DNA from: Isurus oxyrinchus
Lineage: Eukaryota
Length of the DNA stretch: 64,000 nt
Reading direction: 5' to 3'
NCBI GenBank assembly: GCA_026770705.1
Contig: JANJGN010000052.1
Coordinates: 1,922,001-1,986,000, forward strand
Positions within the stretch are counted from its first letter, which is position 1. The number at the start of each line of letters is the position of its first letter. The position numbers were made by a program, and so were the translations under genes. Of this stretch, positions 22,601-56,100 are shown one piece after another. The notes under the pieces are model-generated. The model saw nothing but the letters and a program-made list of their open reading frames with translations. It did no database searches and was not told the origin of the DNA.

Positions 22601-25600
22601 AAAAAAGGATAGACTTGCCGTCGAGAGAGTGCAGAGAAGGTTCTCTAGGCTGATACCAGGGGCGGCAGGACTGTCGTATGAGGAGAATTGGTACGACTGG
22701 GTCTGTATTCACTAGAGTTTAGAAGAATGAGAGGAGACCTGAATAAACGTAAGAAATTCTAACAGAGATAGACAGACTGGATGGAGGGAGGATGCATCCC
22801 CTGGTTGGGGAGACTAAAACCAAGGGCGACAATCTCAGGATACAGGGCAGGCCATTTTGGACTGAGATAGGGAAACATTTCTTCACTCAGAGGGTGGTCA
22901 ATCTGTGGAATTCTCCATCACAGAGGCTGTGGAGGCCGGGTCACTGAGTGTATTCAAGAAAGAAACTGATAAATATTTTGATATTAGGGGCATCAAAGGG
23001 TACGGAGAGAAAGCGGGAATAAGGCTTTGAGATAGAGGGTCAGCCTTGATCATATTGAATGGCGGAGAAGGCTTGAAGGGCTGAATGTCCTAATCGTGCT
23101 CCTAGTTTCTATGTACCTAGGTATCTATAGAACTATCTCTCTCCGTGTTCTATTCTCATGTGACCTTGAGTAACTAATGATAAATACTTTCTATTTTCAT
23201 TGCTAATATTAAACTTTTATACTACATCTCCCCCAAAATCTTTGACATCAATGAAGACAATATTTATATTATCCTATATTGTCTTTTAAGTTCAACCTTG
23301 GCCCCCTCTGCCCTATCAGGTAGGCATAAACAATCCCAAGGTTCAATACAGGAAGAGCTCTCCCTGGTCAATATCACTAATAAAATAGGACCTCTTTTGT
23401 CTTCAAGTGATGTTTGTGGGATCTTGCTCTGCACATTGTATCCTATTACAGCTAATATAGAATCAAGGGTGTCAGTACTTACCTTGTACAGTTAGTACAA
23501 GGGTCTGCTCCGATGAAACAGATGGATATCTCACTCTGCAGCTGAGAGTGTGTCCGTGGTGTTTGAGTGATGGGATCAGGGTCAGAACAGAAGTATAGGT
23601 CAGAGTGACACCATGCTGAGTTACAGTGTTTGAGACTGATCCAGGTACGTCAGTGGGAGTGTCCCAGGTAAAGACAGGTGCTGCTGTTCCATTGCACGTT
23701 GTGTTGAAGTTGCAGCTTACATCCACACGCTTTCCTGCAATAATTTCAGCAGGGAATATCATGGGTTTATCTGTGAAATCTAACACACAGAGAATGGATC
23801 CTTTTAGAGAAATATAACATGAAGCATCAGTTCAAATAGAAAGCACAGTCCCACACGAGAAAGCACTTTTACAAGGATGATATCAGATCAGAGAGATTAC
23901 AACGATCAGGAGAGAATTTCCTATTTTCAGACTTAGTGGAGTTTCTGTCTCTCAGATGAATTCACTTCCACTTCGAGACAATTGAATTGACAATCCCGGG
24001 TGAGGGTGGGGGAGCAGCTCACAGTTCCTGACACACTGGCTTGTTACTTTCTCCGAAATCTGCCAGATTTAAATTCTATCCTGTTCCCAGCAGGAGAGAA
24101 TCCATTTGAACCAATCACTGAACCGGCATCTAAAACAGATGATCAGGTTATTGATCACATTGCTGTTTGTGGGAGCTTCCTGTGAACAAATTGGCTGCTG
24201 TGTTTCCCATATTACAACAAGGGTTACATTTCAAGAATTATTTCAGTGGTTGTGAATCCATGTGCAACGTACAGAGGTGGTGAAAGGCGCTATAGAAATA
24301 CAAATCTTTCTTTTGTTCATATGTAAGAATTTTAAACAGGATTAGGGAGATTGATGTAAGTGGATAACGTGATAACATTGATGGACACAGTCAATACATT
24401 TAATCACTGATATTAAAGTGAGTATTAGAGGTTGTTTTAGGACTGAACTGGAAGCTATCACCAGGTTATTGAGAATCAGACAGTGTGTTATAATAAACTG
24501 TGTTTGTGTTAATATGTAAATGTCACAGTTTGTGTTATTTCCCATTGAGTGTTGGCTGTGAATTGTTGAGTAATTATAACACAGCACTTACCAGAAACGT
24601 GAAGCTGGGTTACAGGGTAATAGTTATGGCTCGGACCATTGTCAAATTCTATTCTGAAAAAATAAGGTCCTGCATCTTCCCGTCTGATGTTGTTTATAAA
24701 CAGGGAACAGTCGCCATCTTTCAGGTCTCCAGACAGCCGGGTCCGATGGTGGAACCGTGGTAACTCGTGACTGTGATCCTTGGAGTGAAAGACAATGGGA
24801 GCCCAGGGAATATGTTTCTCATTATGAAACCAGACTCCACCTCGCGGTTGGTTTTCCAGACACGATGGATAACTGTAATGACATGGAATCTGTACACAGG
24901 AACCTTCCTGCGCTGTCACCTCTCGTGGAGTGTCACCTTTCCACTCTTGTGAGGGTTCAGCTGGGGAGAGAAATATCAATATTTAACTCTGAATGGTTTG
25001 TGGATCCAATAGACTTAAAATTTACAGATGAGGCTGAATTGGGGGGATGGTCAATACTGAGGAGAATGGCAACAAATTATTTTGGCAAGATGAATAGAAA
25101 AACAGGATATTATTTAAATGGAGACAGGCTGCAGAATGCAGTACAGAGGGATCTGGGTGTCCTGGTACATGAATCACAGAAAGTCAGCATTCAGGAACAC
25201 CACGGAATGAGGAAGGCACGTGGAATGTTGGCCTTTATTGCAAAGGGATGGAGTATAAAAGGAGGGAAGTCTTGCAACAGCTGCACAGGGTGAGATTGTA
25301 TCAGGAGCAGTGTGTACAGTTCTGGTCTCCTTACTTAGGGAGGGATAGACTTGCATTGAAGGCAGTTCAGAGGAGGTTCACTGGGCTGATTCCCGGGATT
25401 AAAGGGTTTGTCCTGTGAGGAAATGTTGAGCAGGTTGGGCCTGTATCCATTGGAGTTTAGAAGAATGAGGGGTGACCTTATTGAAACATATCCGATTCCG
25501 AGGGGGCTTGACAGGGTGAATGCTGGGAGGATGTTTCCCCCTCGTGGGGGAATCTAGAACCAGGGAGCACAGTTTCGGAATGAGTGCTCTCCCATTTAAG

Positions 25601-28600
25601 ACTGAGATGAGGAGGAATTTCCTCTCTCAGAGTGGCGCTAGCCTGTGGAATTCTCTTCCCCAGAGAGCAGTGGAGGCTGGGCCATTGAATAGACTCAAGG
25701 CTGAGTGAGGCAGGTTTTTGATCGACAAGGGAGTCAAGGATTTGGGGGACAGGCAGGAAAATGGAGTTAAGGCCACAACCAGATCAGTGAGAGCAGGCTC
25801 GAGGGGCCGAATGGCCTGATCCTGTTCCTATTTCTTATGTTCCTACATTCTTACCTTCTTAAAATATTAAAGCTGCAGAATAAACATGCAAGTGACTGAC
25901 CCGCTCGACCCACCTTCCATCAGGGGCTGGAGGAGGTTACACAGATAGGGAGGTTTGTGGGTGCTGGAGGAGGTAACAGAGATAGGGAGGGCTGTAGATA
26001 CTGGAGGACATTACGCAGATAGGGAGGGTGGTAGGACCTGGAGGAGGTTGCAGAGATAGGGAGGGCTGTAGGGATTTGAGGAGTTTATGGCGATGGGGAG
26101 CGTGTAGGGACTGGAGGAGGCTGCAAGGGCAGAGAGGGTTTTAGGGGCAGTAGGAGTTTACAGGAATAGGAAAAGTTGTAGGGGCTGGACGGATTGCAGA
26201 GGTAGGGAGGGTTGGAAAGGCTGGTGGAGGTTTCAGAGGTAGGGAAGGTTGCAGGGACTGGAGGAGTTTACAGAGATGGGGGAGTTTTTGGGGCAGGATG
26301 GGGTTACAGAGATAGGGAGGGTTGTAAGGGCAGGACGAGGTTACATAGATATGGAGTGTGGCTGGGGCTGAGGGAGGCTACAGAGATAGGGAGGGTTATA
26401 ATGGCTGGAGGAGGTTACAGAGATAAAGGAAACTCTTAGGGACTGGAGGAGGTTACAGAGATAGGGAGGGTTGTAGTGGGCTGGAGGAGGTTACAGAAAT
26501 ATGAAGGGTTGTAAGAGATGGACCAGCTTACAGAGATAGGGAGAGGTATTCGGTCTGGAGGAGGTTGCAGAGATAGGGGAGGTTGTTAGGACTGGAGGAG
26601 GCTACAAATATCGCGAGGGTTATCGGGGCTTGAGGAGGTTAAAGAGATAGGGAGGGGTGTTGGGTCCGGAGGAGTTTGCAGTGATAGGAATGGTTTTCGG
26701 GATTGGAAGAGAGTACTGAGATAGGAGGGTTGTAGGGACTGGAGGAGTCTCCTGAGAAAGGGAGGGTTGTAGGGACTGGAGGAGGCTCCTGAGATAGGGA
26801 GGGTTGTAGGGACTGGAGGAGGCTCCTGAGATAGAGAGGGTTGTAGGGACTGGAGGAGGCTCCTGCGATAGGGAATGTTGCCGTGGATGAAGATAAAGGA
26901 GGAGATTACTGTAATAGGGAGGAAAAATATTCAATAATTTGGACATTGAGACTTTGCTTGACCAGGAGCCAGTCTCGGTCATCGAGCAGAGCGGGTGATA
27001 AGGGAACGGGACTTGGTGTGAGTAAGGACGTGGTCAGCAGTTTTGGATGGCCTCAAGTTTATGGAGTGTAGAGCATGTGTTGGAACAGTCGAGTCTGGAG
27101 GTAATGAAGGCGTGGATGAGGGTTTCAGCAGCAGATGAGCTGAGACAGGGTGAAGTCGTACGACGTTATGGAGGTGGAAATAGACGGTGTTAGTGAGGGC
27201 GCAGATATGAGGCCGGAAGCTCATCTCAGGATCAAATGGGACAACAAAGCTGTGAACAGATTGGCTTCAATCTCAGAGAGCTGCCAGGGAGAGGAATGGA
27301 GTTGGTAGCGAGGGAACAGAGTTTGGAGCGGGGAATGAAGACAATGGCTTCAGTCTTTCCAATATTTAATTGGAGGGAATTTCTGCCCATCCAGTACTGG
27401 ATGTCGGATAAGCAGCCTGATAATTTAGCAGCAGTGGAGGAGTCGAGAGAGGTGGTGGTGAGGTAGAGCTGGGGATCCTCAGTGGACAGGTGAAAACTAA
27501 TACTGTTCAGATGATGCTGCAAAGCCATTGCAAGTGATTCTCTGGCTACGATGAGATGGATAAGAATGGAGCCAGGGGAGAGCAGTTCCACCCAGCTGGA
27601 CGACAGTGGAGAGGGGTTGGAGGAGGATGGTGTGGTCGAGCGTGTCAAAGGCTGCAGACAGATCGAGAAGGACGAGGAGGGAAAGTTGACCTTTGTCACA
27701 GTCACACAGGATGCCATTTGTGACCTTGATAAGAGCTGTTTCAGCACAGTGGCTGGGGTGGGAACCTGATTGGAGGGATTCAAACATGGAGTTCCGGGAA
27801 AGATGGAACCGGATTCGGGAGATGGAAACACTTTCAAGGACTTTGGAGGGGAAAGAGAGGCTGGAGATGGGACGGGGGTTTACACGGACAGTGTGAGGGG
27901 TGGAAGGTGTAGTGGGGAGGAGACACTTCACTCAGGGGGGAGGTGTCATCACCCCTCAGCTCGGTTTACGTTACAGCTATGATGTGGATTCAATCACACA
28001 CAATAAGCTCATGGATCTGGGAGCAGAAATAGACAAATCATTAAAAATAGTGACGCTGGTTAACACAGCCAAAAAACAAGCAAATCAAACACTATTATTT
28101 CCCATTGAGTGTTGGATGTGAATTGGTGAGTAATTATAACACAGCACTTACCAGAAACCTGAAGCTGGGTTACAGGGTAATAGTTATGGCTCGGACCATT
28201 GCCAAATTTTATCGTGAAAAAATAAGGTCCTGCATCTTCCCGTCTGATGTTGTTTATAATCAGGGAACAGTCGCCATCTTTCAGGTCTCCAGACAGCCGG
28301 GTCCGATGGTGGAACTGTGATAACTCGCGACTGTGATCCTTGGAGTGAAAGGCTATAGACCATTTAGACCATTTGTTCTGTATGTATCTTCTCATTTTCC
28401 AGATTCCGACCTGTGGTTTCTTTACCAAATCTGATGGATAACTGTAATGACATGGAATCTGTACACACGAACCTTCCTGCGCTGTCACCTCTCGTGGAGT
28501 GTCACCTTTCCACTCTTGTGACAATCCAACTGGGGAGAGAAATATCAATATTTAACTCTGGATGTTTTGTTGATCCACTAGACTCGATATCCACCCCCTC

Positions 28601-31600: not shown

Positions 31601-33850
31601 ATTTCAAACACAGAGCCTGCAGACAGAGTTGTTGAGTTGGTGATTACATCCACTCCCATGGAAGCCTTCCAGAAAGATCTGCTAGATAAGACCAAAACCT
31701 ATAGCATTGAAGAGCTACTCAAGGATGGACATAAATACGAAGTGATCCTCGCAGGTCAACGAAGCTTACAGGTCCTCAGTACAACATCAATTGTTGACAC
31801 ACTCACTAGAACATACAAACCTAGTGAGACGTGTGGAAGGTGTGGCCTTCTGCAGGCACCAAGGAAATGCCCAGCTTTCCACCAATCCTGCAAGGCTTGT
31901 GGCAGAAAGGGCCATTGACAGCGGCAGGGCACGAGAGCAAAGGCTGATGCAGCTACAAAGAGCCGTGCGCTGATCCAATCAAACCCTGCACAACGGGGAA
32001 CCTTCAAGCAATAAGAATGACCATCCGCTATCCCATCAGGAACATATACATGTGGTGACTGACAAACCAGGAAATGGCGATGATGTACACGACGAGACTA
32101 GGAGCGGTGATCGATATTCCACCTCTCACACATATCCTGACGTGGCTTGCCAATAAATTGTGGATTGTGGTCTTTATTGCTCTCTCTGGGCACATCAAAT
32201 TAACTGAAAATGTTCCCATAGGGGTGGGATTTTCTGGCCCCACCCACTTCCATGATTGTCCGGTCCGGCCGAAAGCCAATGGATTTATGTCTGTCCCAGT
32301 CTCAGAAACTATCCCATCAGCTCAGTTCATGACATAACATTGAAATATGCAGACAGATTCAACAATATTGGCAGGTTCAAGGGAGCGGCAACATTACACC
32401 TGCAGGAGAATGCAAGTCTGTCAGACTCCTTGCATTAAAATTAATACAATCCAACTTTGCCACGCTATCTTGAGCCTTAAATGGCCAATAATTTCTATGC
32501 CTTCCAGTTTCATTTGCTCTCTCTTCTAATTTTGGCCGTGCATCTCTCTCTGTTGAACCTCCTCTCGGGATCCGATCCCCTGCCATATTAGTTTAAAGCC
32601 TCCTCAGTTGCATCAAGGGTGTAATGTCAATTGAAACCAGGGACAACATCGAAGAATGACAATCCCACAGATCAATGTGAGCAATTAAAGAAACCTCCAG
32701 ACAATTTTGCCACCACAAGATCTCGATATAACAGCAGATTACCTCTACGCTTTAGAGACTCAAATATTCAACAGATCTATACACTTATATAATTGTCAAG
32801 AAATATGAAAATGATACCAGGAACCTCTTGTTCCCTGTCCTTCTCAAAGATCCATCCCTGCAGCAGGAGCCTGAAGAGTTACTGATGTGGGGCTTAATTT
32901 ATCAGATTGTAGAATGATCCGGAAATGAAGGATGCCATTTGGCCCATCGAGCCTGTGCTGGGCCTTTGAAAGATCTGTCCAATTAGTCCCACTCTAACCT
33001 CTGCTCTCTCCTCCACAGCCCTGCAAAATGTCCCCTTCAAGTATTTATCCAGTTCCCCTTCTGAAAGTTCCTGTTGAATCTGCTTCCACCGCCCTTTCAG
33101 GCAGTGAGTCAATGGTTTCTCTCTGAGCTGCAAAGTGCTAATGTTCTGAGAACTTTAAACTCTGCAGCAGATCAGAAACAATCATGATAACTCAGAATAT
33201 TTGACAGTTTTACACACGGACAGCTTTACCTTCCTTCTCTCTTTCAGTTATCTTGCTCCCTTATTGAAGTATCTAGCAAGGTGAGAATGGACAGGAAGTG
33301 TGACACTGAACAGCCTGTCTATTCTAAGAGCTGCTGTGTTGTCTTCATGGGAAATTCTGACAAAATCAGCAAAAGACACAAAATTTCAGGGCATTGTTAT
33401 CCGAGTCCCAGCATCAGGATAGACCTCATCCCCCAGTTGGTATTCCTGATTCTCTATTCAGCGGATCGCTCCCCTGTCACTGGCTGAACTACACTGACTC
33501 CCAGTCCAGCAATGACTCAAATTTCAAATTCTCATCATCGAGTTCTTACCCCACCATCCCCCCTCTACACTCTCTATCTGTGTAACCTCCTCGAACCCTA
33601 AATCCCTCTGAGATCTCTGCACTCCTCCAATTCTGCTGTCAGACAGGGAGTCAGTGTATATCAGTGAGCACAGGGGTGATGGGTGAATGGGACTTGGTGT
33701 GAGTTTGTACACTGGCTCACTGCTGAATCGGTTCCCAATCACACTCAATAAGAATGATCTTTTACAAAGACTATTAGCCATAAACCTGTCCGAGCTGACG
33801 ACGTTATTACCTTGGAGAAGTGACAGGAGGAAGTAGGATTTCCCGATCAT
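7821..33850 (-). CDS. Gene A: Siglec-like inhibitory-type receptor (leader-V-V-5xC2-TM-cytoplasmic), about 881 aa; spliced span
   Basis: Exons 33811-33850, 28152-28529, 24592-24960, 23483-23779, 18671-18952, 17461-17742, 15312-15587, 14062-14355, 13044-13140, then 12239-12320 + 10837-11085 or 9599-9680 + 7821-8069. All GT-AG, phase-compatible, no stops. Confidence 0.85.
8185..8398 (-). repeat. 33-bp minisatellite array ending in SINE sequence
   Basis: Reverse-complement units; SINE-like flank at 8165-8200. Confidence 0.85.
8399..8476 (-). CDS. Possible optional 78-nt cytoplasmic exon (distal copy)
   Basis: Polypyrimidine tract + aag, open phase 0-0 (VHVIEPHTRHLSAESKPSLTRAITEG); weak donor gtgcgg. 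Confidence 0.35.
8531..9463 (+). mobile_element. Solo LTR-like element; its 3' part recurs at about 11790-12102
   Basis: TGTTA...TAACA termini, internal AATAAA; shared by both tail modules. Confidence 0.55.
9599..9680 (-). CDS. Gene A distal juxtamembrane cytoplasmic exon
   Basis: ttgcag acceptor, gtacag donor; phase 2-0; RKTVTEERVSGTSDIALTPSPLSVKHQ. Confidence 0.75.
9812..10265 (+). mobile_element. LINE 3' fragment, duplicated at 12452-12910
   Basis: CTIYKMHCSNS..RSFTVAGSKSWNSL LINE C-terminal ORF remnant. Confidence 0.75.
10298..10303 (-). terminator. AATAAA polyadenylation signal of the proximal terminal exon
   Basis: tttatt on the + strand about 535 nt after the stop at 10837, at the edge of the duplicated module. 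Confidence 0.55.
10837..11085 (-). CDS. Gene A proximal terminal exon: ITIM degenerate (FLYANP), ITSM-like TEYAQI retained
   Basis: Acceptor tttctctgtag; GKQNVLITEPR...EEFLYANPQV...ETEYAQIRFEHN*. Confidence 0.85.
   Translation of the reverse strand, partial: GKQNVLITEPRNTTRDTTSEGETPAPRGLSEGPVGGDAGLGNPGKPEEFLYANPQVLRVSSGDGSVHREEETEYAQIRFEHN
11228..11638 (-). repeat. 33-bp minisatellite array
   Basis: About 12 reverse-complement units. Confidence 0.9.
11639..11716 (-). CDS. Possible optional 78-nt cytoplasmic exon (proximal copy)
   Basis: VHVNELHTRHLSEESKPSLTRAITEG, phase 0-0; weak donor gtgcga. Confidence 0.35.
12239..12320 (-). CDS. Gene A proximal juxtamembrane cytoplasmic exon
   Basis: Phase 2-0; RKTAMEERVSGTRDIALTPSPLSVKHQ. 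Confidence 0.8.
13044..13140 (-). CDS. Gene A transmembrane exon (uncharged)
   Basis: tttacag acceptor, gtaagt donor; RDSSKWTVGLFTAGIMLSVFLAGIFIFICVR. Confidence 0.9.
13570..13710. repeat. AT-rich tandem repeat of about 37 bp (about 4 copies)
   Basis: TGTAATCTATGTAACATTTATATATAAT... repeated. Confidence 0.8.
14062..14355 (-). CDS. Gene A membrane-proximal Ig exon (MAG domain 5-like)
   Basis: KPEISQQSECTRRSEGVTCICVANSNPP..W..ASCSVQNPHG; phase 1-1. Confidence 0.85.
14450..15185 (+). mobile_element. L2-like LINE 3' end with internal minisatellite (14670-14965)
   Basis: ELHWLPVRQ..FKI motif; tandem CCTCCCTATCTCTGTAACCTCCTCCAGACCCTACAA. Confidence 0.7.
15312..15587 (-). CDS. Gene A C2-set Ig exon
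   Basis: PPQETMV..EGSNITLTCSSESVPP..YTWF..DAGFYCTARNPVG; phase 1-1. Confidence 0.9.
15895..17135 (+). mobile_element. Penelope-like retroelement 3' part (GIY-YIG endonuclease, degenerate hammerhead at 17070-17105)
   Basis: NIIYCLHCSQCGLLYMGQTKHRLGDR..EH; CTGAAGA-GGAGTC-TTACG-GACTC-CAAA (GAAA core mutated). Confidence 0.85.
17461..17742 (-). CDS. Gene A C2-set Ig exon (tandem duplicate 2)
   Basis: APRNLS..ICSVESFPASNLTW..DTGDYQCVAGNEHG; 282 nt; phase 1-1. Confidence 0.9.
18525..19846. other. Three N gaps (18525-18662, 19364-19637, 19669-19846) in (TG)n-rich intron
   Basis: Direct inspection. Confidence 0.95.
18671..18952 (-). CDS. Gene A C2-set Ig exon (tandem duplicate 1)
   Basis: APQNLS..ICSVESFPASNLTW..DTGDYLCVAENEHG; 282 nt. 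Confidence 0.9.
20050..20925 (-). mobile_element. Ty3/Gypsy integrase remnant
   Basis: MDMTTRFPEAIPL..FFTHYGLPLEIQSDQGS integrase core. Confidence 0.8.
21090..23115 (+). mobile_element. CR1-type LINE ORF2 (RT), degenerate, with 3' tail
   Basis: KSFYKYVK, IYINDL..FSDDT motifs; tail gggctgaatgtcct..tctatgt. Confidence 0.9.
23483..23779 (-). CDS. Gene A first C2-set exon (carries Siglec interdomain Cys, CNFNTTC)
   Basis: FTDKPMIFP..VSCNFNTTCNGTAAPVFTW..TSVLTLIPSLKHHGHTLSCRV; phase 1-1. Confidence 0.92.
24592..24960 (-). CDS. Gene A V-set exon 2 (essential Arg present)
   Basis: AQEGSCVQIPC..RTRLSGDLKDGDCSL..EDAGPYFFRIE: Siglec B-E strand Cys pattern and F-strand Arg. Confidence 0.93.
25015..25850 (+). 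mobile_element. CR1 LINE 3' portion
   Basis: VQRDLGVLVH..FPLVGESRTR..LWNSLPQ; 3' tail. Confidence 0.85.
25920..27890 (-). mobile_element. L2-like LINE (RT 27230-27890) with expanded minisatellite (25920-26880)
   Basis: HCAETALIKVTN..LVLLDLSAAFDTLDH; GGAGGAGGTTACAGAGATAGGGAGGGTTGTAGG array. Confidence 0.85.
28152..28529 (-). CDS. Gene A V-set exon 1 (essential Arg replaced by Thr)
   Basis: VGLSQEWKG..SCVQIPC..GDCSL..DAGPYFFTIKFG; intact GT-AG; phase 1-1. Confidence 0.9.
29155..30443 (+). mobile_element. Solo LTR (about 1.3 kb); adjacent LTR fragment at about 28750-29150
   Basis: TGTAA...TAACA termini, AATAAA near the 3' end. Confidence 0.6.
30630..32820 (+). mobile_element. Degenerate Gypsy-type LTR retrotransposon gag region
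   Basis: MSTKFPSLNW..FKQRTELWF; knuckle-like CGRCG..CPAFHQSCKACGRKGH; PBS-like AACATGGTG. Confidence 0.7.
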
Positions 33851-34664: not shown

Positions 34665-35685
34665 CGGAGGGAGTGCTGCACTGTCAGCGGGACTCTACTG
34701 TGGGAGTGCTGCACTGTGGGAGGGTCAGTAATGTGGGAGTGCTGCACTATCAGAGGGTCAGTAATGGGAGAGTGCTGCACTGTCAGAGGGTCAGTAATGA
34801 GGGAGTGCTGCACTGTCAGAGGGTCAGTAATGTGGGAGTGCTGCACTGTCAGAGGGTCAGTAATGAGGGAGTGCTGCACGGTCAGAGGTTCAGTACTGAG
34901 GGAGTGCTGCACTGTCAGAGGGTCAGTAATGTGGGAGTGCTGAACTGTCGGCGGGTCTGTATTGAGTGAGTTCCGCACAGTCAGAGGGTCAGTATTGAGG
35001 GGGTGCCGGACTGTGGGAGGGTTAGTACTGAGGTAGAGCCGAGTGTGAGAAGATATCCTTTCATGGCAAAGTTTAACTGGAATTTATTTAAACAGAATTC
35101 TTGTACTGTGTGTTATTGCAAAAGAAAGGATTTGAGGAACTAAGTCTTGTTCCCGTAAGCCTAAAAATAATTTTCACCGATTCAATGATTTAGCATTGAA
35201 ACCTCCCTCTTTGGGCACCAGTCTTGATTGAATCAACTCGAACAGCACCGTGGGAGGGTGAGTACTGAGGGAGTGCAGCACTGTGGGAGGGTGAGTACTG
35301 AGAGAGGGCTGCGCTGTGGGAGGGTGAGTACTGAGGGAGTGCTGCACTGTCAGAGAGTCTGTACTGAGGGAGTGCTGCACTGTCAGAAGGTGTGTACCGT
35401 GGGAGTGCTGAACTGTCGGAAGGTCAGTAGTGAGGGAGGGATACAGTGTCAGAGGATCAGTACTGAGGGAGTGCTGCACTGTGGATGGATGAGTACTGAG
35501 GGAGTGCTGCACTGTCAGATTGTCAGCCATGAGGGTGTGCTGCACTGTCAGAAGGTCAGTGCTGACAGGGTGCTGCACTTGAAAAGGGTCAATAATGAGG
35601 TAGTGCAGCACTGTCAGAGGGACAGTAATGAGGGAGCGCTGCACTGACCGAGGGTCAGGATTGAGGAAACGCTGCACTGTCAGTT
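34665..35685 (+). repeat. Two 33-bp minisatellite arrays (34665-35035, 35250-35685)
   Basis: Direct inspection. Confidence 0.9.
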
Positions 35686-37000: not shown

Positions 37001-37138
37001 TGCCTCTCTGATACGAAGGTGATTCTAACCAGGACACTGACCAGTTTGATTACAACTTAACACAACATCACACGTTATTTGTCCGCACTGACTGACCAGA
37101 TTGTTGCTTTACAAAGCTTCAAACAGTCTGTCGACTTC

Positions 37139-37258
37139 CTTTCACTGTTTGTCTCTCCCAGACACAGACTCCAGTGATAGTGATAACCACAGCCACAAGG
37201 AATATCACAGCTCGTATTCCCAGGATCAGGATCACATGCAGAATCTCTCCTCCACTGT
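37139..37258 (-). pseudogene. Gene B transmembrane exon with intramembrane Arg
   Basis: ttctctag acceptor; SGGEILHVILILGIRAVIFLVAVVITITGVCVWERQTVK; donor reads gaagtc, not gtaagt. Confidence 0.8.
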
Positions 37259-38015: not shown

Positions 38016-40048
38016 TTCTCCACTTCCATGATCTCTCCCCCAGTCAGTAACCACTCCAGATCCCTCTTGAAGGCGACAGAGAAACAGGAACTACCACACC
38101 CACTGACAGCACATTCTCAAGGATCCCTACTTTCTGGGAAAAGATGAACTCCCCAACATCCAGCCTATTCCTGCTTCCCAGAGAGTGTAAACCCTTCAGG
38201 GAGGCACTGAGGAAGTTTTCAATAAAATGAATTATCAAATCTATCATTTGAGAAATAATTTAATTCTGATGAACTCACAGCTTGTGTAGCAAACTGGGAA
38301 GTGGAGTTGCTTGAAAAGCTGGGAAACACAAGGATTAAGTGCTACAATGCCACCACTGGTGGGAGACTGTAACTACAGCGTGACGTTTACATAGGCAGTC
38401 ATCATTATAAACAGGGGCATTGGACATACTGGGAAATATGTGCACTGGAAAGGTGAGTAAATGATGTAAGATTTTCACCAGCAGGAATTCTCTAACTAAA
38501 CCTCTCCACTTCTCTCTTACTCTCAGATACACAAACAAAATCACACAGAATCAGATAAGGAGGAGTTGGGGCCGGTGATTGTTCGAAGGGTTAGCTTTCA
38601 GGAAGCTTCTTAAAGGGAGAGAGAGAGTTGGAGAGGCAGAGAGTATCTGTGAGTGTCTCTATGCATCTGAGTGTCTGTAATAGACTTTGTAATTTCCATT
38701 TCTTCCATAAACATGATTGGGAACACAAATCCCAGAATCCAGGCCAACTCTCCAGTGCAGTACTCAGGTAAGCCACAGGGCAGTGTGTGCTAGTGTGTTT
38801 GTTCGTGAGTGTGTCTTTGTAATTGCTCATACATGTGTGTCTGCACGTGTCTATTTAGTTCTGTATATTTGTGTGTGTTTGTGCAATGTTTGAATCTGCG
38901 AGAGATGTTGAAGTCTGTGTAACTCACGTTCCACACTGATGGTTATGAACCCCTCCACTGCTCCATGTTCATTCTCTGCCACACACTGATAGTCTCCAGT
39001 GTCCCGATATGTAATGGGAGGAATCACCAACCACAGCTCATTGTTGGAACTTGTTCTGTTCATTTGGACATTAAGATGTCAGGGCAGGAATCAAGAAGCC
39101 CGTTCGCAGGATTACCAACAGAAAGTGAACCACAATTTATACTTAATGGGAAGAGAGTGCTGATTGGTTGGCAAGTGGTCTCTGATAGGTGGAGGTGTTG
39201 CCATGGAGAATGGTGTGTGCGAGATGTAAACTTTAGACAGCTTGTCTCTTTATTCAGTAATAATCAAATAAAGATCAATTAACTTCAATCGACTGTGAAG
39301 CACTTTGAGAGGTCTGAGAATGTGGACACTGAGAACGGGCTGCACTGTCAGAGGGTCAGCGCTGAGGGAGTGCTGATGTAGAATGAAAGGTGTATGTACT
39401 TACCTTGCACAGTTAGTACGAGGGTCCGCTCCGATGAAACAGATGGATATCTCACTCTGCAGCTGAGTGTGTGTCCGTGGTGTTTGAGTGATGGGATCAG
39501 GGTCAGAACAGAAGTATAGGTCAGAGTGACACCATGCTGAGTTACAGTGTTTGAGACTGATCCAGGTACGTCAGTGGGAGTGTCCCAGGTTAAGACAGGT
39601 GCTGCTGTTCCATTGCACGTTGTGTTGAAGGTGCAGCTTACATCCACAGGCTTTCCTGCAATAATTTCAGCAGGGAATATCATGGGTTTATCTGTGGAAT
39701 CTAACAGACAGAAAATGGATCCTTTTAGAGAAATATAACGTGAAGCATCAGTTCAAATAGAAACCACAGTCCCACAAGAGAAAGCACTTTTACAAGGATG
39801 ATATCAGAACTGAGAGGTTACAATGATCAGGAAAGATTTTCTTGCTCTTTGGCAGTTGTGTTTCTGTCTCTCAGCTTAATACACGTTCACTCCGAGACAT
39901 GTGAATTGAGAACACTGGATGAGAGAAGAGGCTCAGACCAGAGATTGGAGTTAAAAGCAGAATACTGCGGATGCTGGAAATCTGAAACAAAAACAAAAAT
40001 TGCTGGAAAGACTAAGCAGGTCTGACAGTATCAGTGGGGAGGAAGACA

Positions 40049-40087
40049 GGGTTAACGTTTCGAGTCCGTATGACTCTTCATCAGACC
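40049..40087 (-). ncRNA. Minimal type I hammerhead ribozyme motif in a Penelope-derived insertion
   Basis: GGT-CTGATGA-A-GAGTC-ATACG-GACTC-GAAA-CGTTA-ACC; insertion 39944-40080 flanked by the direct repeat TCAGACCAGAG. Confidence 0.7.
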
Positions 40088-42127
40088 AGAGGTTTGAGTT
40101 CACTGGCTTCTCATTTCCTCAGTGATCTGGGTGATTTAGCACCTTGTGGTTTGTTGGATCTTGCTGTGCACAAACTGCCTGCTGTGTTTTACATCTGTGA
40201 CCACAATTCAGGAATAATTTCATTGGCTGTGAATGGATTTGGATCCTCCTGAGGTGGTAAATTGCGCTGCAGAAATGCACATCATTCTTTTATCGATACG
40301 TCAGACTTTTAAACAGGACAGGAGAGATTGATGGGAGTGGATAACCTGATAATACAGTTAATGCTTTTAATCATTGATATTAAAGTGAGTATTAGAGGTT
40401 GCTTTAGGACTGAACTGGAAGCTATCACCAGGTTATTGAGAATCAGACAGTGTGTTATAATAAGCTGTGTTTTGTGTTAATATGTAAACGTCACAGTTTG
40501 TGTTATTTCCCATTGAGTGTTGAATGTGAATTGTTGAGTAATTATAACACAGCACTTACCAGAAACATGAAGCTGGGTTACAGGGTAATAGTTATGGCTC
40601 GGACCATTGTCAAATTCTATTCTGAAAAAATAAGGTCCTGCATCTTCCCGTCTGATGTTGTTTATAATCAGGGAACAGTCGCCATCTTTCAGGTCTCCAG
40701 ACAGCCTGGTCCGATGGTGGAATCTTTGATCCCTGTGACTGTGACCCTCGGAATGAAAGGCTATAGACCATTTCGGCTGTGGGTTCCCATCTATTCCTTT
40801 CAAGCAGATTCCGACACGTGATCTCCCTACGAAATTTGATAAGTAACTGTAATGACATGGAATCTGTACACACGAACCATCCTGCGCTGTCACCTCTCGT
40901 GAAGTGTCGCCTTTTCAATCTTGTGACAGTCCAACTATGGAGAGAAATGTCAATATTTAACTCTGGAAGGTTTGTAGATCCACTAGACTCGATATCCACC
41001 CCCTCCATCACTGGGGCTCAGTGGCTGCAGTGTGGACCATCTACAGGACACACAAGGAACTCCCCAAGGTTTCACAACGGATGGAAGAGAATCCTGGACA
41101 CAGGAGTGGACAAGTTCATTCTACATTGGCTCATGGTGCTCAGGACCCTGTTTAGTGAAGCCAGTCTTCCACCCAACACAGAGTCTACAAGACACACAGG
41201 GAAACTGTGTAAACATCTCATCTCTCTAAACTGACTGGTTTGAGCTTCGGTTTAACTTTCAGTATTTTTAAATTTCCATATTGTGGTTGCTATGGTGAAA
41301 CTGTGCAGGAAGTGTGAGGGCTGGACTCTCTGTCTATTCTGACTGCAGCTGTGATGTGGTCGTGGTGATTCTCAGTAAAATGAAACCCTCTGAGCTCCTC
41401 CATCCCCGAGGTTTAGGGAGTGAATTCCAGAGCTCAGGCCCCAGGCAGCTGAAGGCCCGGCCGCCAGTATTGGAGTGATGGGAATCGGGGGATGGTCAAG
41501 AGGCCGGAATTGGAGTAACACAGAGATCTGGGAAGTTGTTTGTGTGAGTTGCAGGAGGTTACAGAGATAAAGAGATAAGAATGATCTTTTACAAAGACTG
41601 TTAAACATAAATCTGTCCGAGCTGATGATGATATTACCTTGGAGAAGTGACAGGTGGAAGTAAGATTTCCCGACCATCGTCCACTCCCAGATATTCCATC
41701 CACTTCTCACTCTCAAACTGTGAAAGAGAAAGGAGTTAATGAGACCTCACCTCTTGTCCGACAGCTCTCGAGAGATCAGAACTGCTTTTAGACAATGTCT
41801 TCATAGACTAATTTGATTCTCTGTGGGATGATAGGTGCTCTGCAGAGAGTTACAAGTCTTTAAGTAAGACAAACAATGATTGATTTGCATTTCTATAGCA
41901 CCTTTCACTATCTCAGGGCATCCCAAAGCTCATGTCTCTGCAGTTCCCTCATCCCTTGAGCTAGAAAGATGTTCTGTACAACAGACTTGAGTCTCACACC
42001 CAGAATTCAATAATCAGTAAAAATCTTTCAAAGGCATCAATCATTGGAATCTGTCTTTATAAAGTCACAACATCAACAAAGGACAGTGTTGGTGGTGGAA
42101 GTGAATTCCAATCATTCCGTTACTTAC

Positions 42128-43605: not shown

Positions 43606-43606
43606 A

Positions 43607-47103: not shown

Positions 47104-50100
47104 TTTCTCACACACTTGAAGATGAAGAATCCACTCAGTCCAACACTCAAACAGATTCCAGCTCCAAGCAATCCTGCTTTCCATTCATTGGAATCTCGCC
47201 CTGTAAAATCAGCCAATGAATGACTCCGGTACAGTTTGAGAATGGTTCCCTATGTACATGTAGTAATTCTGAACTTGTGAAGTGATATTGTCTATGCATG
47301 AAAGGTCTATACAAATAAATTTATCTATGTAATATTTATTGATAATATCCATGTACATGCAGGTTTCTATAAGGAGGATTCACATATAACAGAGGTGCCA
47401 AGCTGCTGAGGTGACACACAGGATTACAAAAATTCCAAACAGCGGAAACAACATGCTATAGACAGAGCAAAGCGATCCCACAACCAACGATTCAGATCTA
47501 AGCTCTGCAGTCCTGCCACATCCAGTCATGAATGGTGATGGACAATTAAAGATCTAACAGGAGGAGGATGTTCCACAAATATCCCCATCCTTAATGATGG
47601 GGGAGCTCAGCACATCAGTGCAAACGACAAGGCTGAAGCATTGGCAACCATGTTCAGCCAGAAGTGCTGAGTGGATGATCCATCTCGGCCTCCTCCAGAG
47701 GGTCCCAGCATCACAGATGTCAGCTTTCAGACAATTCGATTGACTCCACGTGACATCAGCAATCAGCTGATGATACTGGATACAGCAAAGGCTCTTGGTC
47801 CTGGCAACATCCCGGCAACAGGAAATAATGTGGCTACAAGAGCGGGTCAGAGGCTGGGAACTCTGTGGTGAGTAATTCAACTCCTGACCACCCAAAGCCT
47901 GTCCACCATCGGACAAGGCACAAGTCAGGAGTGTGATGGAATAATCTCCAATTGCCTGAATAAGTGCAGCTCCAACAACACTCAAGAAGCTCGACACCGT
48001 CCAGGAGCAGCTTGTTTGATCGACAGCCCATCCACCAGCATAAACATTCATACCCTCCACCACTGGCACACAATGGCAGCAGTGTGTGCACCATCTACAA
48101 GATGCACTGCAGCAACTCACCAAGGCTCCTTCGACAGCACCTTCCAAACTCTTAACCTCTTCCACTGAGACAGTTCCAAGTCAGTGAGGTGTGTGATTTG
48201 GAAGCGAACTTGAGGTGTTGGTGTGCCCTGGGACTTGGAACTATATCGGACGTTCCTTCACCATCACTGGGACAAAATCCTGGAACTCCCTCCCTAACAG
48301 CACTGTGGGTGTGCGTACACCACATGGACTGCAGTGGTTAAAGAAGGCAGCTCACCACCACCTTCTCAAGGGGCAGTTACAGATGCGCAATAATTTCTGG
48401 TCTTATCAACAATGCCCACATCCCATGAGCTAATAACAAGAGAACGTTCAATTCTGTGTAACTCACGTTCCACAGTGATGTTATAAATCCCTCCACTGCT
48501 CCATGTTCATTCTCTGCCACACACTGATAGTCTCCAGTGTCCCTGGATGTAACGTGAGGAATCACCAACCACAGCTCATTGTTGGAACTTGTTCTGTTCA
48601 TTGGGACATTAAGATGTCGCCACGTCAGGTTAGAAGCTGGGAAGCTCTCGACAGAGCAGATTATCACTGCAGAATTCCCCTCAATTATATTGATCGATGA
48701 AGCGTTAATCATACCAAGAGAAGTAATTGAGAGATTCTGTGGTTTGTCTGAAAACAAATAAAGATCAGTTACTTACATTGACTGTGAAACACTTTGAGAG
48801 ACACTGAGAATGTGAAAGGTGTGATATCAATGTAGGTTCCTTCACCACAAAGCACTTAATTCAGGCAGACACTTCAGTTCAGTACTGAGGGAGTGCTGTA
48901 CTGTTGGAGGGTCAGTACTGATGGAGTGCTGCACTGTTGGAGGGTCAGTACTGAGGGAGAGCTGCCCCCTTGGAGCGTGAGTACTGATGACCTGCTGCAC
49001 CGTTGGAGGGCGGTTACTGTGAAGTCTGGACTGCCGCATAGTCAGTATTGAGCAAGTACTTCACTGTCAGAGAATAGTACTGAGGGAGTGCTGAACTGTT
49101 GGAGGATCAGTACTGAGGGAGTGCTGCACTGTCGGAGGATCAGTACTGATGGACTGGTGCACTGTCGGAGGATCAGTACTGAGGGAGTGCTGCACTGTCG
49201 GAGGGTAAGTACTGATGGAGTGGTGCACTGTCAGAGGGTCAGTACTGAGGGAGTGGTGAACTGTCGGAGGGTCAGTACTGAGGGATTGCTGCACTGTTGG
49301 AGGGTCAGTACTAGAGGAGTGTTGCACTGTTGGAGGGCCAGTACTGAGGGAGTGCTGCACTTTCGGAGGGTCAGTAATTAGGGAGCTCTGCACTGTTGGA
49401 GGGTCAGTACTGAGGGAGTGCCGCAGTGTCGGAGGGTCAGTACTGAGGGAGTGCTGCACTGTCGGAGGGTTAGTACTGAGGGAGTGCTGCACTGTCGGAG
49501 CGTCAGTAATTAAGGAGCTCTGCACTGTTGGAGGGTGATAAGGCCATAAGACCACAAGACGTCAGAGCAGAAGGAGGCCATTCGGCCAGTCAACTCTGCT
49601 CCGCCATTCAATGATACCATGTCTGATCTGACAATCCTCAACTCCACTTTCCTGCCTTTTCCCCATAGCCTTTGATTCCCTGACTGATTAAAAAACTGTG
49701 TATCTCAGCCTTGAATATAATTAATGACCCAGCCTCTGCAGCTCTCTGTAGTAAAGAATTCCACACATTCACTACCCTCTGAGAGAAGAAACTCCTCATC
49801 TCTGTCTTAAATGGGTGACCCCTTACTCTGAGATTATGCCCTCTGGTCCTAGACTCTCCCACAAGGGGAAACAACCTCTCAGCATCTACCCTGTCAAGCA
49901 CCCTAAGAATCTTATATGTTTCAATAAGGTCAGCTCTCATTCTCCTAAACTCCAATGAGTACAGGCCCATCCTACTCAACCTCTCCTCATATGAAAATCC
50001 CTCCATTACTGGGATCAACCTAGTGAACCTTCTCTGGACTGCCTCCAATACCAGTACATCTTTCCTTAGATAAGGGAACCAAAACTGCGCACAGTATTCT

Positions 50101-53100
50101 AGGTGTGGTCTAACTAGTGCCTTGTATAGTTTTAGCAAGACTTCCCTATTTTTATACTCCATTCCCTTTGAAATAAAGGCCAACATTCCACCTGCCTTCC
50201 CTATTAACTGTTGAACTTGTATGTTATCTTTCTGATGACCCCCAAATTCCTCTATGCTTCAGCTTTCCAATGTCTTTCTCCATTGAAATAATATTCAGCT
50301 CCTCTATACATCCTGCCACAGTGCAGCAGCTCACATTTTCCCACATTATATTCCATCTGCCAAGTTGATGTCCACTCACTGAACCTGTCTATGTCTCTCT
50401 GTAGACTCTTCGTGTCACCCTCACCACTTGCCTTCCCATCTATTTTTGTGTCATCCACAAACTTGGCGAAAGTACATTAATTTCCCTCATCCAAGTCATT
50501 AATATATATTGTAAATAATTGTGGCCCCAGCACTGATCCTTGTGGCACTCCACAGATTGCCATCCTGAAAATGCCCCCCTTATCCCAACTCTCTGACTTC
50601 TATTAGTTAGTCGATCCTCTATCCATGCTAATATACTGCCCCCAACACCATGGGCTCTTATCTTATTAAGTAGCCTTATATGTGATACTTTACTGAACAA
50701 CTTTTGGAAATCCAAATATATTACATCTACTGGTTCCCCTTTATCTATCCTGTTTGTTACCTCCTCAAAGAATTCTAATAAATTTGTCATGCATGATTTC
50801 CCCTTCATGAAGCCTGTGTGTGATTAAATTATGCATTTCTAAATAGTCTGCTATTACATCCTTTATAATGGACTCTAACATGTTCCCAATGACAGATGTT
50901 AAGCTAACTGCCCTATAGTTACCTGTTTGTTGTCTCCCTCCCTTTTTGAATATGGGTGTTACATTGGCAGTTTTCCAATCCTCTGGGAGTTTCCCAGAAT
51001 CTAAGGATTCTTGGAAGATTAAAACCAGTGCATCCACTATCTCTGCATCTACTTCCTTTAATATCCTAAGATGCAACCTATCAGGTCCAGGGGACTTATC
51101 AGCCTTGAGACCCATTAATTTCGCTAGCGTTATTCTCTAGTGATAGTTACTGTATTTATTTCCTCTCCCCACCCCCCTTTTGCCCCTTGATTATTTAGTA
51201 TTTTTGGAATGCTATTAGTGTGTTCTACCGTGAAGACTGATGCAAAGTATTTATTCAACTCCTCTGTCATTTTCTGGTTCCTCATTATTATTTCCCCAGC
51301 CTAGTTCTCTAAGGGGCCCATGTTCACTTTGGTCTCTCTCTCCTTTCTTATATATTTAAAGAAGCTTTTATTGTCCTTTTTTATATCAATTACTAGTTTA
51401 CCTAGTTTTCTCCCTCTTTATTTATTTTTTGGTCATCTTCTGTTGGTTTTTAAATCTCTCTCAATCCTCTGGCTTACCACTAATCTTTGTCGTGCTGCAT
51501 GTTTTTTCTTTCAATTTGACACACACCTTAACTTCTTTGGTTAACCCAGGTTGGTTTATTCTCTTCCTACAATCCTTCTTCCTCACTGGGATATATCTTT
51601 GTTGTGAGTCATGAGCTATTTTCTTTAACATCTGCTTTGTTCATCCAGCATCTTTTCTGCTAAACCCCTTTCCCAGTCCACTCCAGACAACCCTGTCCTT
51701 ATTCCTTTGTAATTAAACTTATTTAAGTCCAGCACAGTTGTTTCCGACCCAGGTTTCTCAGTCTCAAACGGAATGCTAAATTGTACCAGGTTATGGTTAC
51801 TGTTTTCCAGGGGATCATTTATTCTGAGATCATGTATGAAACCTGCCTCATTACACATTACCAGATCCAAAATAGCCTGATCCCTGGTTAGATCCACGAC
51901 ATATTATTCCAGGAAACTGTCTTGAATACACTCTATGAATTCTTGCTCATGGCTACCTCTGCCAATTGGGTTTTCCCAATCTACATGAAGATTAATGTAC
52001 TGCCTTTTTTACATGCCCTCATTATCTCATGATTTATTGTCTGTCCTACAGCCGAGCTACAGTCATGGGGCTGATAGACCACTCCCACCAGTTCCTTGTT
52101 CCACTTGTTATTCATTACCTCGAGCCATATGGATTCTATACCCTCCGATCCAAGATCATTTCTTGCTTTCGTACTTATTCCATCTCCTATTAACAAAGCT
52201 ACCCCACCACCTTTCCTTCCTGCCTGTCTTTTTGAAAAGTCACATACCCCTGAATATTTATTTCAAAGCTTTGATCTCCTTGTAACCATGTCTCCATAAT
52301 GGCTATAAGATCAAACCCATTAACCTCTAATTGTGCCTTTAATTCATTTATGTTGTTCCAAATACTATGTGCATTTAAGTCAAGAGCCATTAATTTTGTC
52401 TTTTTATCATTTTCCTCCCTCTGACACTATTTGCTGATGTATTTTAATGTTTGGACACTGTGTACCCACCTGTCACACGCTGGGTATCATCACCAAAACA
52501 GCTATCCTGCAATGCTGGCAAATCCTTTTGCTTTGTAAGCCTACATATACCCTCTCCAGAACACTCTGCCCATCTATTTAGTTTAAAGGCAATACTGAGG
52601 GAGAGCAGCACTGTCAAAGGGTCATTACTGAGGGAGTGTTGCACAGTTGGAAGCTCTGGAACAAGGGACTGCAGCATTATCTGAGGGTCAGTCGGGAGGG
52701 AGGTATTCAATGTTGGATTGTAAGTTCTGAGGGAGCGCTGCAGAGTTGGAGGTTCAGTAGTGAAGGAGTGCTGCACTGTCAGAGGGTCAGTACTGAGGGA
52801 GTGCTGCACTGTCAGAGGATCAGTACTGAGGGAGTGCTGCACTGTTGGAGGGTCAGTACTGTGGGAGTGCTGCACTGACGGAGGATCAGTACGGAGAGAT
52901 TTCTAAACTGTTGGAGGATCAGTACTGAGGGAGTGCTGCACTGTCAGAGGGTCAGTACTGAGAGAGAGTTGCACTATCAGTGGGACAGGACTGAGGGAGT
53001 GCTGCACTGTCAGAGGGACAGGACTGAGGGAGTGCTACACTGTCAGTGGGTCAGGACTGAGGGAGTGCTGCACTGTCAGAGGGTCAGTACTGAGGGAGTG

Positions 53101-56100
53101 CTGCACTGTCGGAGGGTCAGTACTGAGGGAGTGCTGACTGTCAGAGGGTCAGTACTGAGGGAGTGTTGCACTGTCATAGGGTCAGTAATGAGGGAGTGCT
53201 GCACTGTCATAGGGTCAGTACTGAAGGAGTGCTGCACTGTCAGAGGGTCAGTACCGAATGAGTGCTGCACTGTCATGGGGTGAGGACATTGCGATTCCTG
53301 CTCTGCTCTATCGGTCTCTTGGCTGGAAATAAAAGCCGCTGTGTTACTGTTCAGAAACTGTTATTAATTGTGTTCTGGTCACTATTTTCCCTAAAAAACA
53401 GATTATCTGATTCTCATCAGAATACCTTTCTATGGGATCCTGCTGTGCATTATCTACACTGTTCTAGCTAATGTACAATGAAAGGTCGTCCGTACTTACC
53501 TTGCACAGTGAGTACGAGGGTCCGCTCCGATGAAACAGATGGATATCTCACTCTGCAGCTGAGAGTGTGTCCGTGGTGTTTGAGTGATGGGATCAGGGTC
53601 AGAACAGAAGTATAGGTCAGAGTGACACCATGCTGAGTTACAGTGTTTGAGACTGATCCAGGTACGTCAGTGGGAGTGTCCCAGGTTAAGACAGGTGCTG
53701 CTGTTCCATTACACGTTGTGTTGAAGGTGCAGCTTACATCCACACGCTTTCCTGCAATAATTTCAGCAGGGAATATCGTGGGTTTATCTGTGAAATCTAA
53801 CAGACAGAGAATGGATCCTTTTAGAGAAATATAACGTGAAGCATCAGTTCAAATAGAAACCACAGTCCCACAAGAGAAAGCACTTTTACAAGGATGATAT
53901 CAGAACTGAGAGGTTACAATGATCAGGAAAGATTTTCTTGCTCTTTGGCAGTAGTGTTTCTGTCTCTCAGCTTAATACACGTTCACTCCGAGACATGTGA
54001 ATTGAGAACACTGGATGAGAGAAGAGGCTCAGACCAGAGATTGGAGTTAAAAGCAGAATACTGTGGATGCTGGAAATCTGAAACCAAAACAAAAATTGCT
54101 GGAAAGACTCAGCAGGTCTGACAGTATCAGTGGAGAGGAAGATAGGGTTAACGTTTCGAGTCCGTATGACTCTTCATCAGACCAGAGGTTTGAGTTCACT
54201 GGCTTCTCATTTCCTCAGTGATCTGGGTGATTTATTACATTGTGGTTTGTTGGATCTTGCTGTGCACAAACTGACTGCTGTGTTTTACATCTGTGACTAC
54301 AATTCAGGAATAATTTCATTGGCTGTGAAGGGATTTGGATCCTCCTGAGGTGGTAAATTGCGCTGCAGAAATGCACATCTTTCTTTTATCGATACGTCAG
54401 CCTTTTAAACAGGACAGGAGAGATTGATGGGAGTGGATAACCTGATAATACAGTTAATGTTTTTAATCATTGATATTAAAGTGAGTATTAGAGGTTGCTT
54501 TAGGACTGAACCGGAAGCTATCACCAGGTTATTGAGAATCAGACAGTGTGTTATAATAAGCTGTGTTTTGTGTTAATATGTAAATGTCAAAGTTTGTGTT
54601 ATTTCTCATTGAGTGTTGAATGTGAATTGTTGAGTAATTATAACACAGCACTTACCAGAAATGTGAAGCTGGGTTACAGGGTAATAGTTATGGCTCGGAC
54701 CATTGTCAAATTCTATCCTGAAAAAATAAGGTCCTGCATCTTCCCGTCTGATGCTGTTTATAATCAGGGAACAGTCGCCATCTTTCAGGTCTCCAGACAG
54801 CCGGGTCCGATGGTGGAACCGTGGTAACTCGTGACTGTGATCCTTGGAGTGAAAGGCAATGGGAGCCCAGGGAATCTGTTTCTCATTATTAAACCAGACT
54901 CCACCTCGCGGTTTGCTTTCCAAATGTGATGGATAACTGTAATGACATGGAATCTGTACACACGAACCTTCCTGCGCTGTCACCTCTCGGGGACTGTCAC
55001 CTTTCCACTCTTGTGACAGTCCAACTGGGGAGAGAAATATCAATATTTAACTCTGGAAGGTTTGTAGATCCACTAGACTCGATATCCACCCCCTCCATCA
55101 CTGGGGCACAGTGGCTGCAGTTTGGAACATCTACAGGACACACAAGGAACTCCCCAAGGTTTCACAATGGATGGAAGAGAATCCTGGACACAGGAGTGGA
55201 CAAGTTCATTCTACTTTGGCTCATGGTCCTCAGGACCCTGTTTAGTGAAGCCAGTGAGACAGTGTCACTGTGCCTTGTATTATAATGCTCCTGTGTAGCC
55301 CCTTGGATTGTTTTTTTTTACAGTTAAGGCGCTATGTAAATATAATCTATTGCTCTCTGCTCATCTGGACCATTTGGATTGTTAATTTCAAGCGGCCTGG
55401 TGACTGCTTCATGTTCAGTCCAAATGCAGCCTCTAATTATCACTTTAATGTCAATGATTAAATGTGACCCAACACACTGTCTACAAGACACACCAACTGA
55501 GATCCATTCAGTGCTGATTTACAAGACAGGACAATGGATTAGGAGCCGTCAGAACTCCCCCCATTATCACCGTCATGAATCACTAATTAGCCTAACATTC
55601 CTGTCTGCTCTTCAACACAGCTGATTGGCTAATCTGATTCAATCTGATTGGTGCACTTTGGACCTTCATTGTCTGAGGAATCTCTTTGGATCCTCATTGT
55701 TTTAGGAATATCTTTGGATCCTCATTGTTTAAGGAATCTCTTTGGATCCTCATTGTCTAAGGGATTATTTCTGATCCAAACCCCATATTGTTGTATTGTT
55801 GATTCCGATGCAGCATTGTAGACTGACTTGTCCCCAAGCTCAGCACTGACCCTACTCCAGCAGACACTGTGAAACACACTAACAAAGTGCCTCTAGCCTG
55901 AGCTCTGCATGTGTCGAGAGAAAGACAAATATACAAACTGAATATTGACACCTTTACACACAGACAGCTTTACCTTCCTTCTCTCTTTCAGTTATCTTGC
56001 TCCCTTATTGAAGTATCTAGCAAGGTGAGAATGGACAGGAAGTGTGACACTGAACAGCCTGTCTATTCTAGGAGCTGCTGTGTTGTCTTCATGGGAAATT

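Follow-up and report, generated by a model that had tools for sequence, protein, structure and literature searches.

Gene conversion among Siglec paralogues is known from primates, where the pairs Siglec-11/-16 and Siglec-5/-14 combine inhibitory and activating tails in one cluster and where conversion has reached the V-set domain and the adjacent C2 domain in fragmented tracts, with a non-functional copy involved (PMC5701461, PMC13358205). In SIGLEC11/16 the homogenisation is centred on exons (PMC5701461). A Siglec with two V-set domains is also known, Siglec-12 (Siglec-XII), the human protein of which has lost the essential arginine (PMC6288428). In another family, the paired CEACAM receptors of Xenopus, conversion is limited to exons with few synonymous changes between divergent introns, and change is fast on the CC'C''FG face (PMC5112662). 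A paper on teleosts describes fish as regularly having only four Siglecs, without the inhibitory CD33-related ones (PMC7226832). Here we describe a cluster of Siglec-like genes in a shark, Isurus oxyrinchus. The window, meaning the whole stretch of DNA analysed, comprises 64,000 nucleotides (nt) of contig JANJGN010000052.1 (assembly GCA_026770705.1, positions 1,922,001 to 1,986,000) and holds three Siglec-like genes, A, B and C, together with the terminal exon of a fourth. Coordinates count from the first base of the window, and all exons and loops given below, as well as the block and the intron insertion of gene B, lie on the minus strand.

In our reading, to which we give a probability of about 0.65, the V exons of this cluster are mosaics: the V frameworks and the neighbouring exons have likely been homogenised, and inside them two old lineages of the BC-CC' loop segment persist. 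Such a mosaic would not by itself be a surprise, given the conversion already described for primate Siglecs. The primate pairs, however, keep their binding domains almost identical, whereas the loop of shark genes B and C is left out of the homogenised block or breaks it, and shark loop types cross species. Gene A resembles human Siglec-XII in having two V-set domains, one of them without the essential arginine, but shark and ray models stack two to six V domains side by side, and in these shark and ray rows the internal ones have a dedicated cysteine in the BC loop. In the frog CEACAM genes the loop differences are read as post-conversion, whereas those of the shark would largely predate it, and the converting frog genes face each other, whereas the shark genes lie head to tail. 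Less expected than the mosaic is a large Siglec-like family with inhibitory and activating members in cartilaginous fish. Literature searches among open-access papers yielded no description of the shark and ray family or its internal-domain cysteine; the supplements of the whale shark paper may list the genes.

Mosaic structure of the V exons

The V exons measure 369 nt in A-V2, the internal V exon of gene A (24592..24960), 378 nt in A-V1, the N-terminal one (28152..28529), 375 nt in gene B (40560..40934) and 369 nt in the single V exon of gene C (54656..55024). All four have AG/GT ends. These lengths agree with an earlier note on this DNA, which also held that the exons are almost identical outside the loop, as they are: in the remaining 255 nt each of the six pairs has 9-14 differences (94.5-96.5% identity). 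The 123-nt BC-CC' segment after CHYSY takes up 74 of the 97 variable columns, and in 10,000 permutations no window of that length matched this concentration (p = 1e-4). A second variable stretch of the family, at F-G, is uniform in three of the four V exons of the window. CC' was the most variable segment in each group tested.

Two loop types occupy the segment. A-V1 (28437-28315) and B (40842-40723) carry N-type loops, that of B being divergent, and A-V2 (24868-24755) and C (54932-54819) carry loops of the IPWAP type. Of 19 informative sites, 17 follow this grouping, which the earlier note had proposed, and every one of the 17 lies inside the segment. The loops of A-V2 and C differ at 9 of 114 bases; in those of A-V1 and B the likeness is confined to short patches, with 43 of 120 bases and 25 of 40 codons different.

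Other parts of the genes tell other histories. For the triple A-V2, B and C, the loop segment has 44 sites that unite A-V2 with C and 7 that unite B with C, and the V-C2 intron has 6 and 95, respectively; the contrast between a loop that groups A-V2 with C and a V-C2 intron that groups B with C, which the earlier note had remarked upon, is incongruent by count (Fisher p = 3e-24). The leader block yields a third pattern, with 27 sites shared by A and C against 15 and 13 for the other groupings. Over its first 190 nt the V-C2 intron is 2-4% apart among all three genes; deeper, the distance of A from B/C is 24% and 14%, and that of B from C is 1-4% (about 2%). Over a 1.8-kb block, B (39372..41165) is 94.4% identical overall to C (53467-55255), and the loop stands out in it as a divergent island; B and C share this block, yet their tails are unrelated.

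Exons and introns also differ in how far they have diverged. When A is compared with C, the 3' V framework and the first constant exon (C2a) have 5 synonymous differences over about 116 sites (4%), whereas 89 of 464 sites (19%) differ in the deep intron (p = 3e-5). Both this marked lag of exon synonymous divergence behind the intron and the conflicting histories along the gene are features of a gene-conversion mosaic. To that extent recombination or conversion, the latter proposed in segmental form in the earlier note, is supported; the loops themselves, however, appear to be old.

Age of the loop types

Synonymous divergence (dS) between loop types is 0.6-1.3, as compared with 0.03-0.11 in the frameworks. 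Where two sequences have the same residue, loops of different types use different codons in 17 of 57 comparisons, and frameworks do so in 13 of 306. Taken with exon synonymous divergence so far below that of the intron, the high loop dS indicates that the frameworks were likely homogenised and recombined around old loop lineages.

The relatives from other species are proteins from predicted gene models, and the following comparisons are of amino acids. The A-V2 loop is 89% identical to internal domains of white and basking sharks and 78% identical to the loop of C; the A-V1 loop has an identity of 41% to B and of 63-67% to domains of the same two sharks. The frameworks of the window are 93-98% identical to those of other lamniform species. 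In the loop tree, A-V1 and B fall in a lamniform clade of seven rows (96, starred), B on a long branch (1.02), and A-V2 and C fall in a clade of 21 rows (95, starred) with Mustelus, Chiloscyllium and Pristiophorus; in the framework tree all four V exons of the window come together (93, unstarred). These trees used 73 of 137 domains, leaving out rays, several sharks and the catshark domains without the BC-loop cysteine. Within lamniforms, the frameworks of internal and first domains are 89% identical, as against 80% for internal domains across orders; for the loop the order is reversed, with 52% within the order and 62% across orders. All four combinations of loop and FG type, as assigned by our sequence patterns, occur in both white and basking sharks. 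The two loop lineages are thus probably older than the split of the sampled shark species, at the level of probability given above for the reading of which this is a part.

A Siglec-like family in sharks and rays

The closest relatives among 111 matches are white shark and basking shark proteins, 89-94% identical in the V domain, and the named matches (110 of the 111) come from sharks or rays throughout. In a second homologue search, no vertebrates other than sharks and rays, mammals included, were among the best 120 of 183. Databases already annotate the proteins as Siglec-like, with names such as lectin 12 or 13 assigned automatically. The best solved-structure matches of the V domain are Siglec-5, MAG, Siglec-7, Siglec-8 and CD33, and the top 18 PDB sequence matches are all Siglecs. 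Pfam recognised V-set and Ig_CD22 in all three V exons scanned, A-V1 among them, and C2-set_2 in C2a. The modelled V2-C2a pair of a white shark relative superimposes on MAG with a Z of 19.8 (3.5 Å over 210 residues). The architecture is that of a Siglec, with an N-terminal V-set domain followed by C2-type Ig domains. The essential arginine of strand F is kept in A-V2, B and C (YFFRIE) and aligns with that of Siglec-5 and MAG; in A-V1 it is replaced by threonine (codon at 28215), so that gene A keeps it only in its second V domain. The F-G region of A-V1 has two further changes beside this one. The cysteines follow the Siglec pattern of a B-E intrasheet pair, an A'-B cysteine and a domain-2 cysteine, all aligned to cysteines of CD33, and the corresponding bonds are predicted. 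In cysteine layout and arginine, as in the best sequence and fold matches, the shark domains thus resemble the Ig1-Ig2 module of MAG (Siglec-4) and CD33.

Three types of tail occur in the cluster: one with an immunoreceptor tyrosine-based inhibitory motif (ITIM; gene A), one with a transmembrane arginine (gene B, a pseudogene) and one with tyrosine motifs (gene C). An ITIM tail and a short tail with a charged transmembrane helix within one cluster are the mark of paired receptors (PMC13358205), and we call the shark tails inhibitory and activating by their motifs and by analogy with that pattern. The loop of B is 23-41% identical to the other loops of the window, and B is broken. Two white shark models, P0013 and P0021, look like an inhibitory and activating pair, with V2 near-identical between the two, and the arginine-type tail motif was present in 7 of the 111 relatives, from three species. 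Judged from these motifs, the shark receptors would bind sialic acid and signal.

A cysteine of internal V domains

A-V2 has a further cysteine seven residues after that of strand B (codon at 24862-24860), which A-V1, B and C lack. A regular-expression count of complete V domains (149, of which 133 distinct, in 111 proteins; partial and atypical domains, including the first V of P0001, were left out) found this BC-loop cysteine in 32 of 43 domains that follow another V and in 1 of 90 others, with none among the 48 preceded by a leader. The 11 species concerned span sharks, including a sawshark, and two rays. Further non-internal domains from the second search lacked it in all 26 cases, for a total of 1 in 116 non-internal domains; the single case belongs to a model that starts at the V domain without a leader. 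Two ray proteins, P0011 and P0020, have second and fourth V domains without the BC-loop cysteine and with another cysteine just after strand C.

The position of this cysteine is where domain 2 of Siglecs carries its inter-domain cysteine, which C2a has at +6 in 42 of 42 matched cases. In MAG and CD33 the V-set domain is joined to domain 2 by a disulfide (C37-C165 in MAG, PMC5150538; C36-C169 in CD33, PMC6669322; C163 is given elsewhere), and the V-set cysteine of CD33, when left free, leads to oligomers (PMC6669322). In the shark proteins a second V-set domain would occupy the position that domain 2 has there: the cysteine of an internal V would pair with the A'-B cysteine of the preceding V, which would let V domains stack without a free thiol. 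A V1-V2 model of a basking shark relative overlays Ig1-Ig2 of Siglec-10, MAG, Siglec-5 and CD33 at 4.0-5.6 Å over 200-210 residues, as compared with 8.6 Å or worse for non-Siglec two-domain matches, although the predictor may have learned the Siglec docking. In sequencing runs from related organisms, guessed to be RNA, contigs joined the end of a V exon to the start of a V exon in two of four runs and V to C2a across the intron in all four. No V exon of the window was found in runs recorded as RNA, where the best share of words was 0.65; these runs look like relatives and have no bearing on expression of the window genes.

The BC-loop cysteine likely forms a V-V disulfide in tandem-V Siglecs, and such a bond, if true, shows how a Siglec V domain can stack in tandem. 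More tentatively, and with somewhat less than even confidence, we suggest that sharks and rays possess an expanded paired Siglec system of their own, with multivalent receptors that stack two to six disulfide-stapled V-set domains and recombine two ancient binding modules (BC-CC' and FG) in interchangeable frameworks, giving germline diversity of ligands, the outermost V being under diversifying selection.

Probable gene conversion and alternative explanations

The mosaic probably arose as follows. Repeated gene conversion and unequal crossing-over through the near-identical frameworks would homogenise the V frameworks and neighbouring exons, and recombination through the same frameworks would shuffle loop, FG segment, number of V domains and tail. 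Conversion tracts that cross the loop would either be stopped by its divergence or be selected against, since the choice of ligand and, through the cysteine, the place of the domain in the stack would depend on it; the loop would thereby escape homogenisation. Selectivity of Siglec-7 and Siglec-9 depends on their C-C' and B-C' loops (PMC10877568, where the role of C-C' that the earlier note had named is stated), and by analogy the loops of the shark proteins may set glycan choice. Near-identical frames with different loops are natural loop-swap chimeras, which makes this role directly testable.

Several points weigh against this account. Only four DNA copies were compared, one of them a pseudogene; the loop and framework trees have few columns and mostly open forks; and the within-order excess of framework identity seen in lamniforms is absent in the two other orders tested. 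Sharks evolve slowly, with slow substitution rates (PMC8455134), so purifying selection explains part of the protein similarity, and the ratio of non-synonymous to synonymous change (omega) of about 4 between A-V1 and B suggests fast change of N-type loops that age alone does not explain. As to the cysteine, it is missing from 11 of the 43 internal domains (three in a fused-looking model, four in rays and four others); the counts are not independent and the trait may have a single origin, and a tree-based test of independent pairs, cysteine against position, had only five pairs (p = 0.5). The V1-V2 model has a predicted template-modelling score (pTM) of 0.45 and gives no distance between the cysteines, and for a further two MAG chains the alignment gave 20 Å. 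Back-splicing could account for the V-V joint, which comes from runs that are only guessed to be RNA.

The earlier note preferred a different course, in which diversifying selection acts while short conversion tracts bring BC-CC' loops into frameworks that hardly vary, and pseudogene B serves as a donor. In B and C the loop does form an island, its flanks being 96-99% identical, A-V1 and B have 17 informative sites in common, and a non-functional allele converted human SIGLEC11 (PMC5701461); a loop could also have been transferred from a paralogue outside the window. No near-identical tract was found between B and A-V1, the proposed donor and recipient, however, and the differences at 43 of their 120 loop bases rule out a recent transfer from B. 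The loop of A-V1 is closer to those of other species than to that of B, which sits on its long branch. B is more likely a broken recombinant, made of an N-type 5' half and a C-like 3' half and intron, than a donor. Diversifying selection fared unevenly: counting found no pair of the six with non-synonymous change significantly in excess of synonymous change; the codon model gave an omega of 4.1 for A-V1 and B (p = 0.025, uncorrected, one of six pairs, for a segment picked after seeing the data) and of 0-1.4 for the other five pairs; and the comparison of omega over four sequences was not significant (log-likelihood gain 1.1). The pairwise value suggests fast change within the N-type lineage. 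We consider loop transfer of this kind unlikely.

Less likely still is a history without conversion, in which recent duplications were followed by strong purifying selection on the frameworks and fast adaptive change of the loops. Such a history would agree with the high identity of the frameworks to those of other lamniform species (93-98%), with the slow substitution rates of sharks (PMC8455134) and with CC' being the most variable segment in each group tested, but it cannot yield opposite groupings of loop and intron, nor 4% exon synonymous divergence beside 19% in the introns of the same genes, nor the high loop dS between types, and is largely refuted by them.

It is very improbable that somatic diversification acts on the loops or produced them, or that V1 and V2 are mutually exclusive cassettes. 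Models with several V domains and several loop types exist, one with seven V domains and many isoforms, but that model opens with a transmembrane and tail stretch and looks fused. Every V domain is encoded by one germline exon whose splice sites are normal, different species have loop types in common, and the V-V joint and the position-linked cysteine favour tandem use. Somatic rearrangement as a default was rejected, the 64 kb having only one weak match to a recombination signal sequence, in an intron. An assembly artefact, in which collapsed or chimeric haplotypes gave the mosaic, is likewise very improbable: the region is rich in repeats and has three runs of N, and the one-base loss in C and the stop in B could be errors, but the copies are 2-7% different rather than identical, and independent shark assemblies show these loop types and tails again, with V1 and V2 in the same order.

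Gene structures

In gene A a leader precedes the two V exons, V1 and V2, which are followed by five more Ig exons, a transmembrane exon and a tail present in two copies. The coding part of its leader exon (33811..33850) has an ATG and a GT donor, and the same leader opens named shark relatives. C2a (23483..23779), of Siglec domain-2 type with its cysteine at +6 and joined to V in the four runs mentioned above, is followed by four Ig exons (18952-18671, 17742-17461, 15587-15312 and 14355-14062), three of which were scanned with Pfam, and by the transmembrane exon (13140-13044). The cytoplasmic cassette is doubled (12320-10841 and 9680-7821), with exons at 12320-12239 and 11085-10841 in one copy and at 9680-9599 and 8069-7821 in the other. 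The distal copy has the ITIM LLYANI and also TEYAQI; as the full ITIM is found only there, alternative tails may differ in signalling.

Gene B has a leader exon (41638..41677), a V exon with an in-frame TGA at 40917, C2a (39404..39700), a 5'-truncated further Ig exon (near 39078-38920) and a terminal exon (37119..37258) of the activating type, with an arginine in the transmembrane helix and a short tail. This tail is 89% identical over 46 residues to a white shark tail. White shark models with the arginine tail have an N-type V1 and a V2 with the cysteine, making B a possible collapsed copy of a gene of this kind.

Gene C has a leader exon (56560..56599), its single V exon, with the arginine and without the BC-loop cysteine, C2a (53500..53796), a second constant Ig exon of 281 nt (48747-48467), a transmembrane exon (47200-47104) and tail exons with VYENC, LYANC and SVYGNL (46291-46207, 45695-45591 and 45053-44937). 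The second constant exon is one base shorter than its paralogues, which could be an assembly error; skipping it would preserve the frame from C2a to the transmembrane exon. The 85-nt exon that is in frame in this tail (46291-46207) has near-identical copies at 34385-34301, 42212-42128, 57135-57051 and 59893-59809, about 450 nt upstream of every leader exon, and may there be a 5' untranslated exon. Upstream of gene C lies the terminal exon of the fourth gene, which is of C type (62354-62238).

Intron insertion and repeats

The V-C2a introns of B (39915..40140) and C (54011-54234) share an insertion of about 150 nt that is flanked by direct repeats of 20 nt and contains a hammerhead-type core and a stem (fold z -1.0). 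At the insertion point the A-V2 intron has unrelated sequence rather than a clean empty site. The earlier note had called the insertion Penelope; it is indeed common to B and C, and the name is plausible, Penelope-like elements being linked to a hammerhead motif (PMC6155905), but there was no Rfam hammerhead match. Rfam gave nothing at gathering scores in the window and a single chance match to a small nucleolar RNA in the insertion. Short repeats with the hammerhead core occur in several copies, at 16267-17133 (+) and 43607-43825 as well as at the two intron sites. Upstream of one copy is an open reading frame that Pfam did not name and that may be GIY-YIG-like. Arrays of 37 bp and 43 bp also recur in the window, and a 33-bp minisatellite forms at least seven arrays of up to 70 copies, among them 8183-8408, 11234-11648, 34667-35683, 48879-49536, 52593-53275 and 57419-59718.

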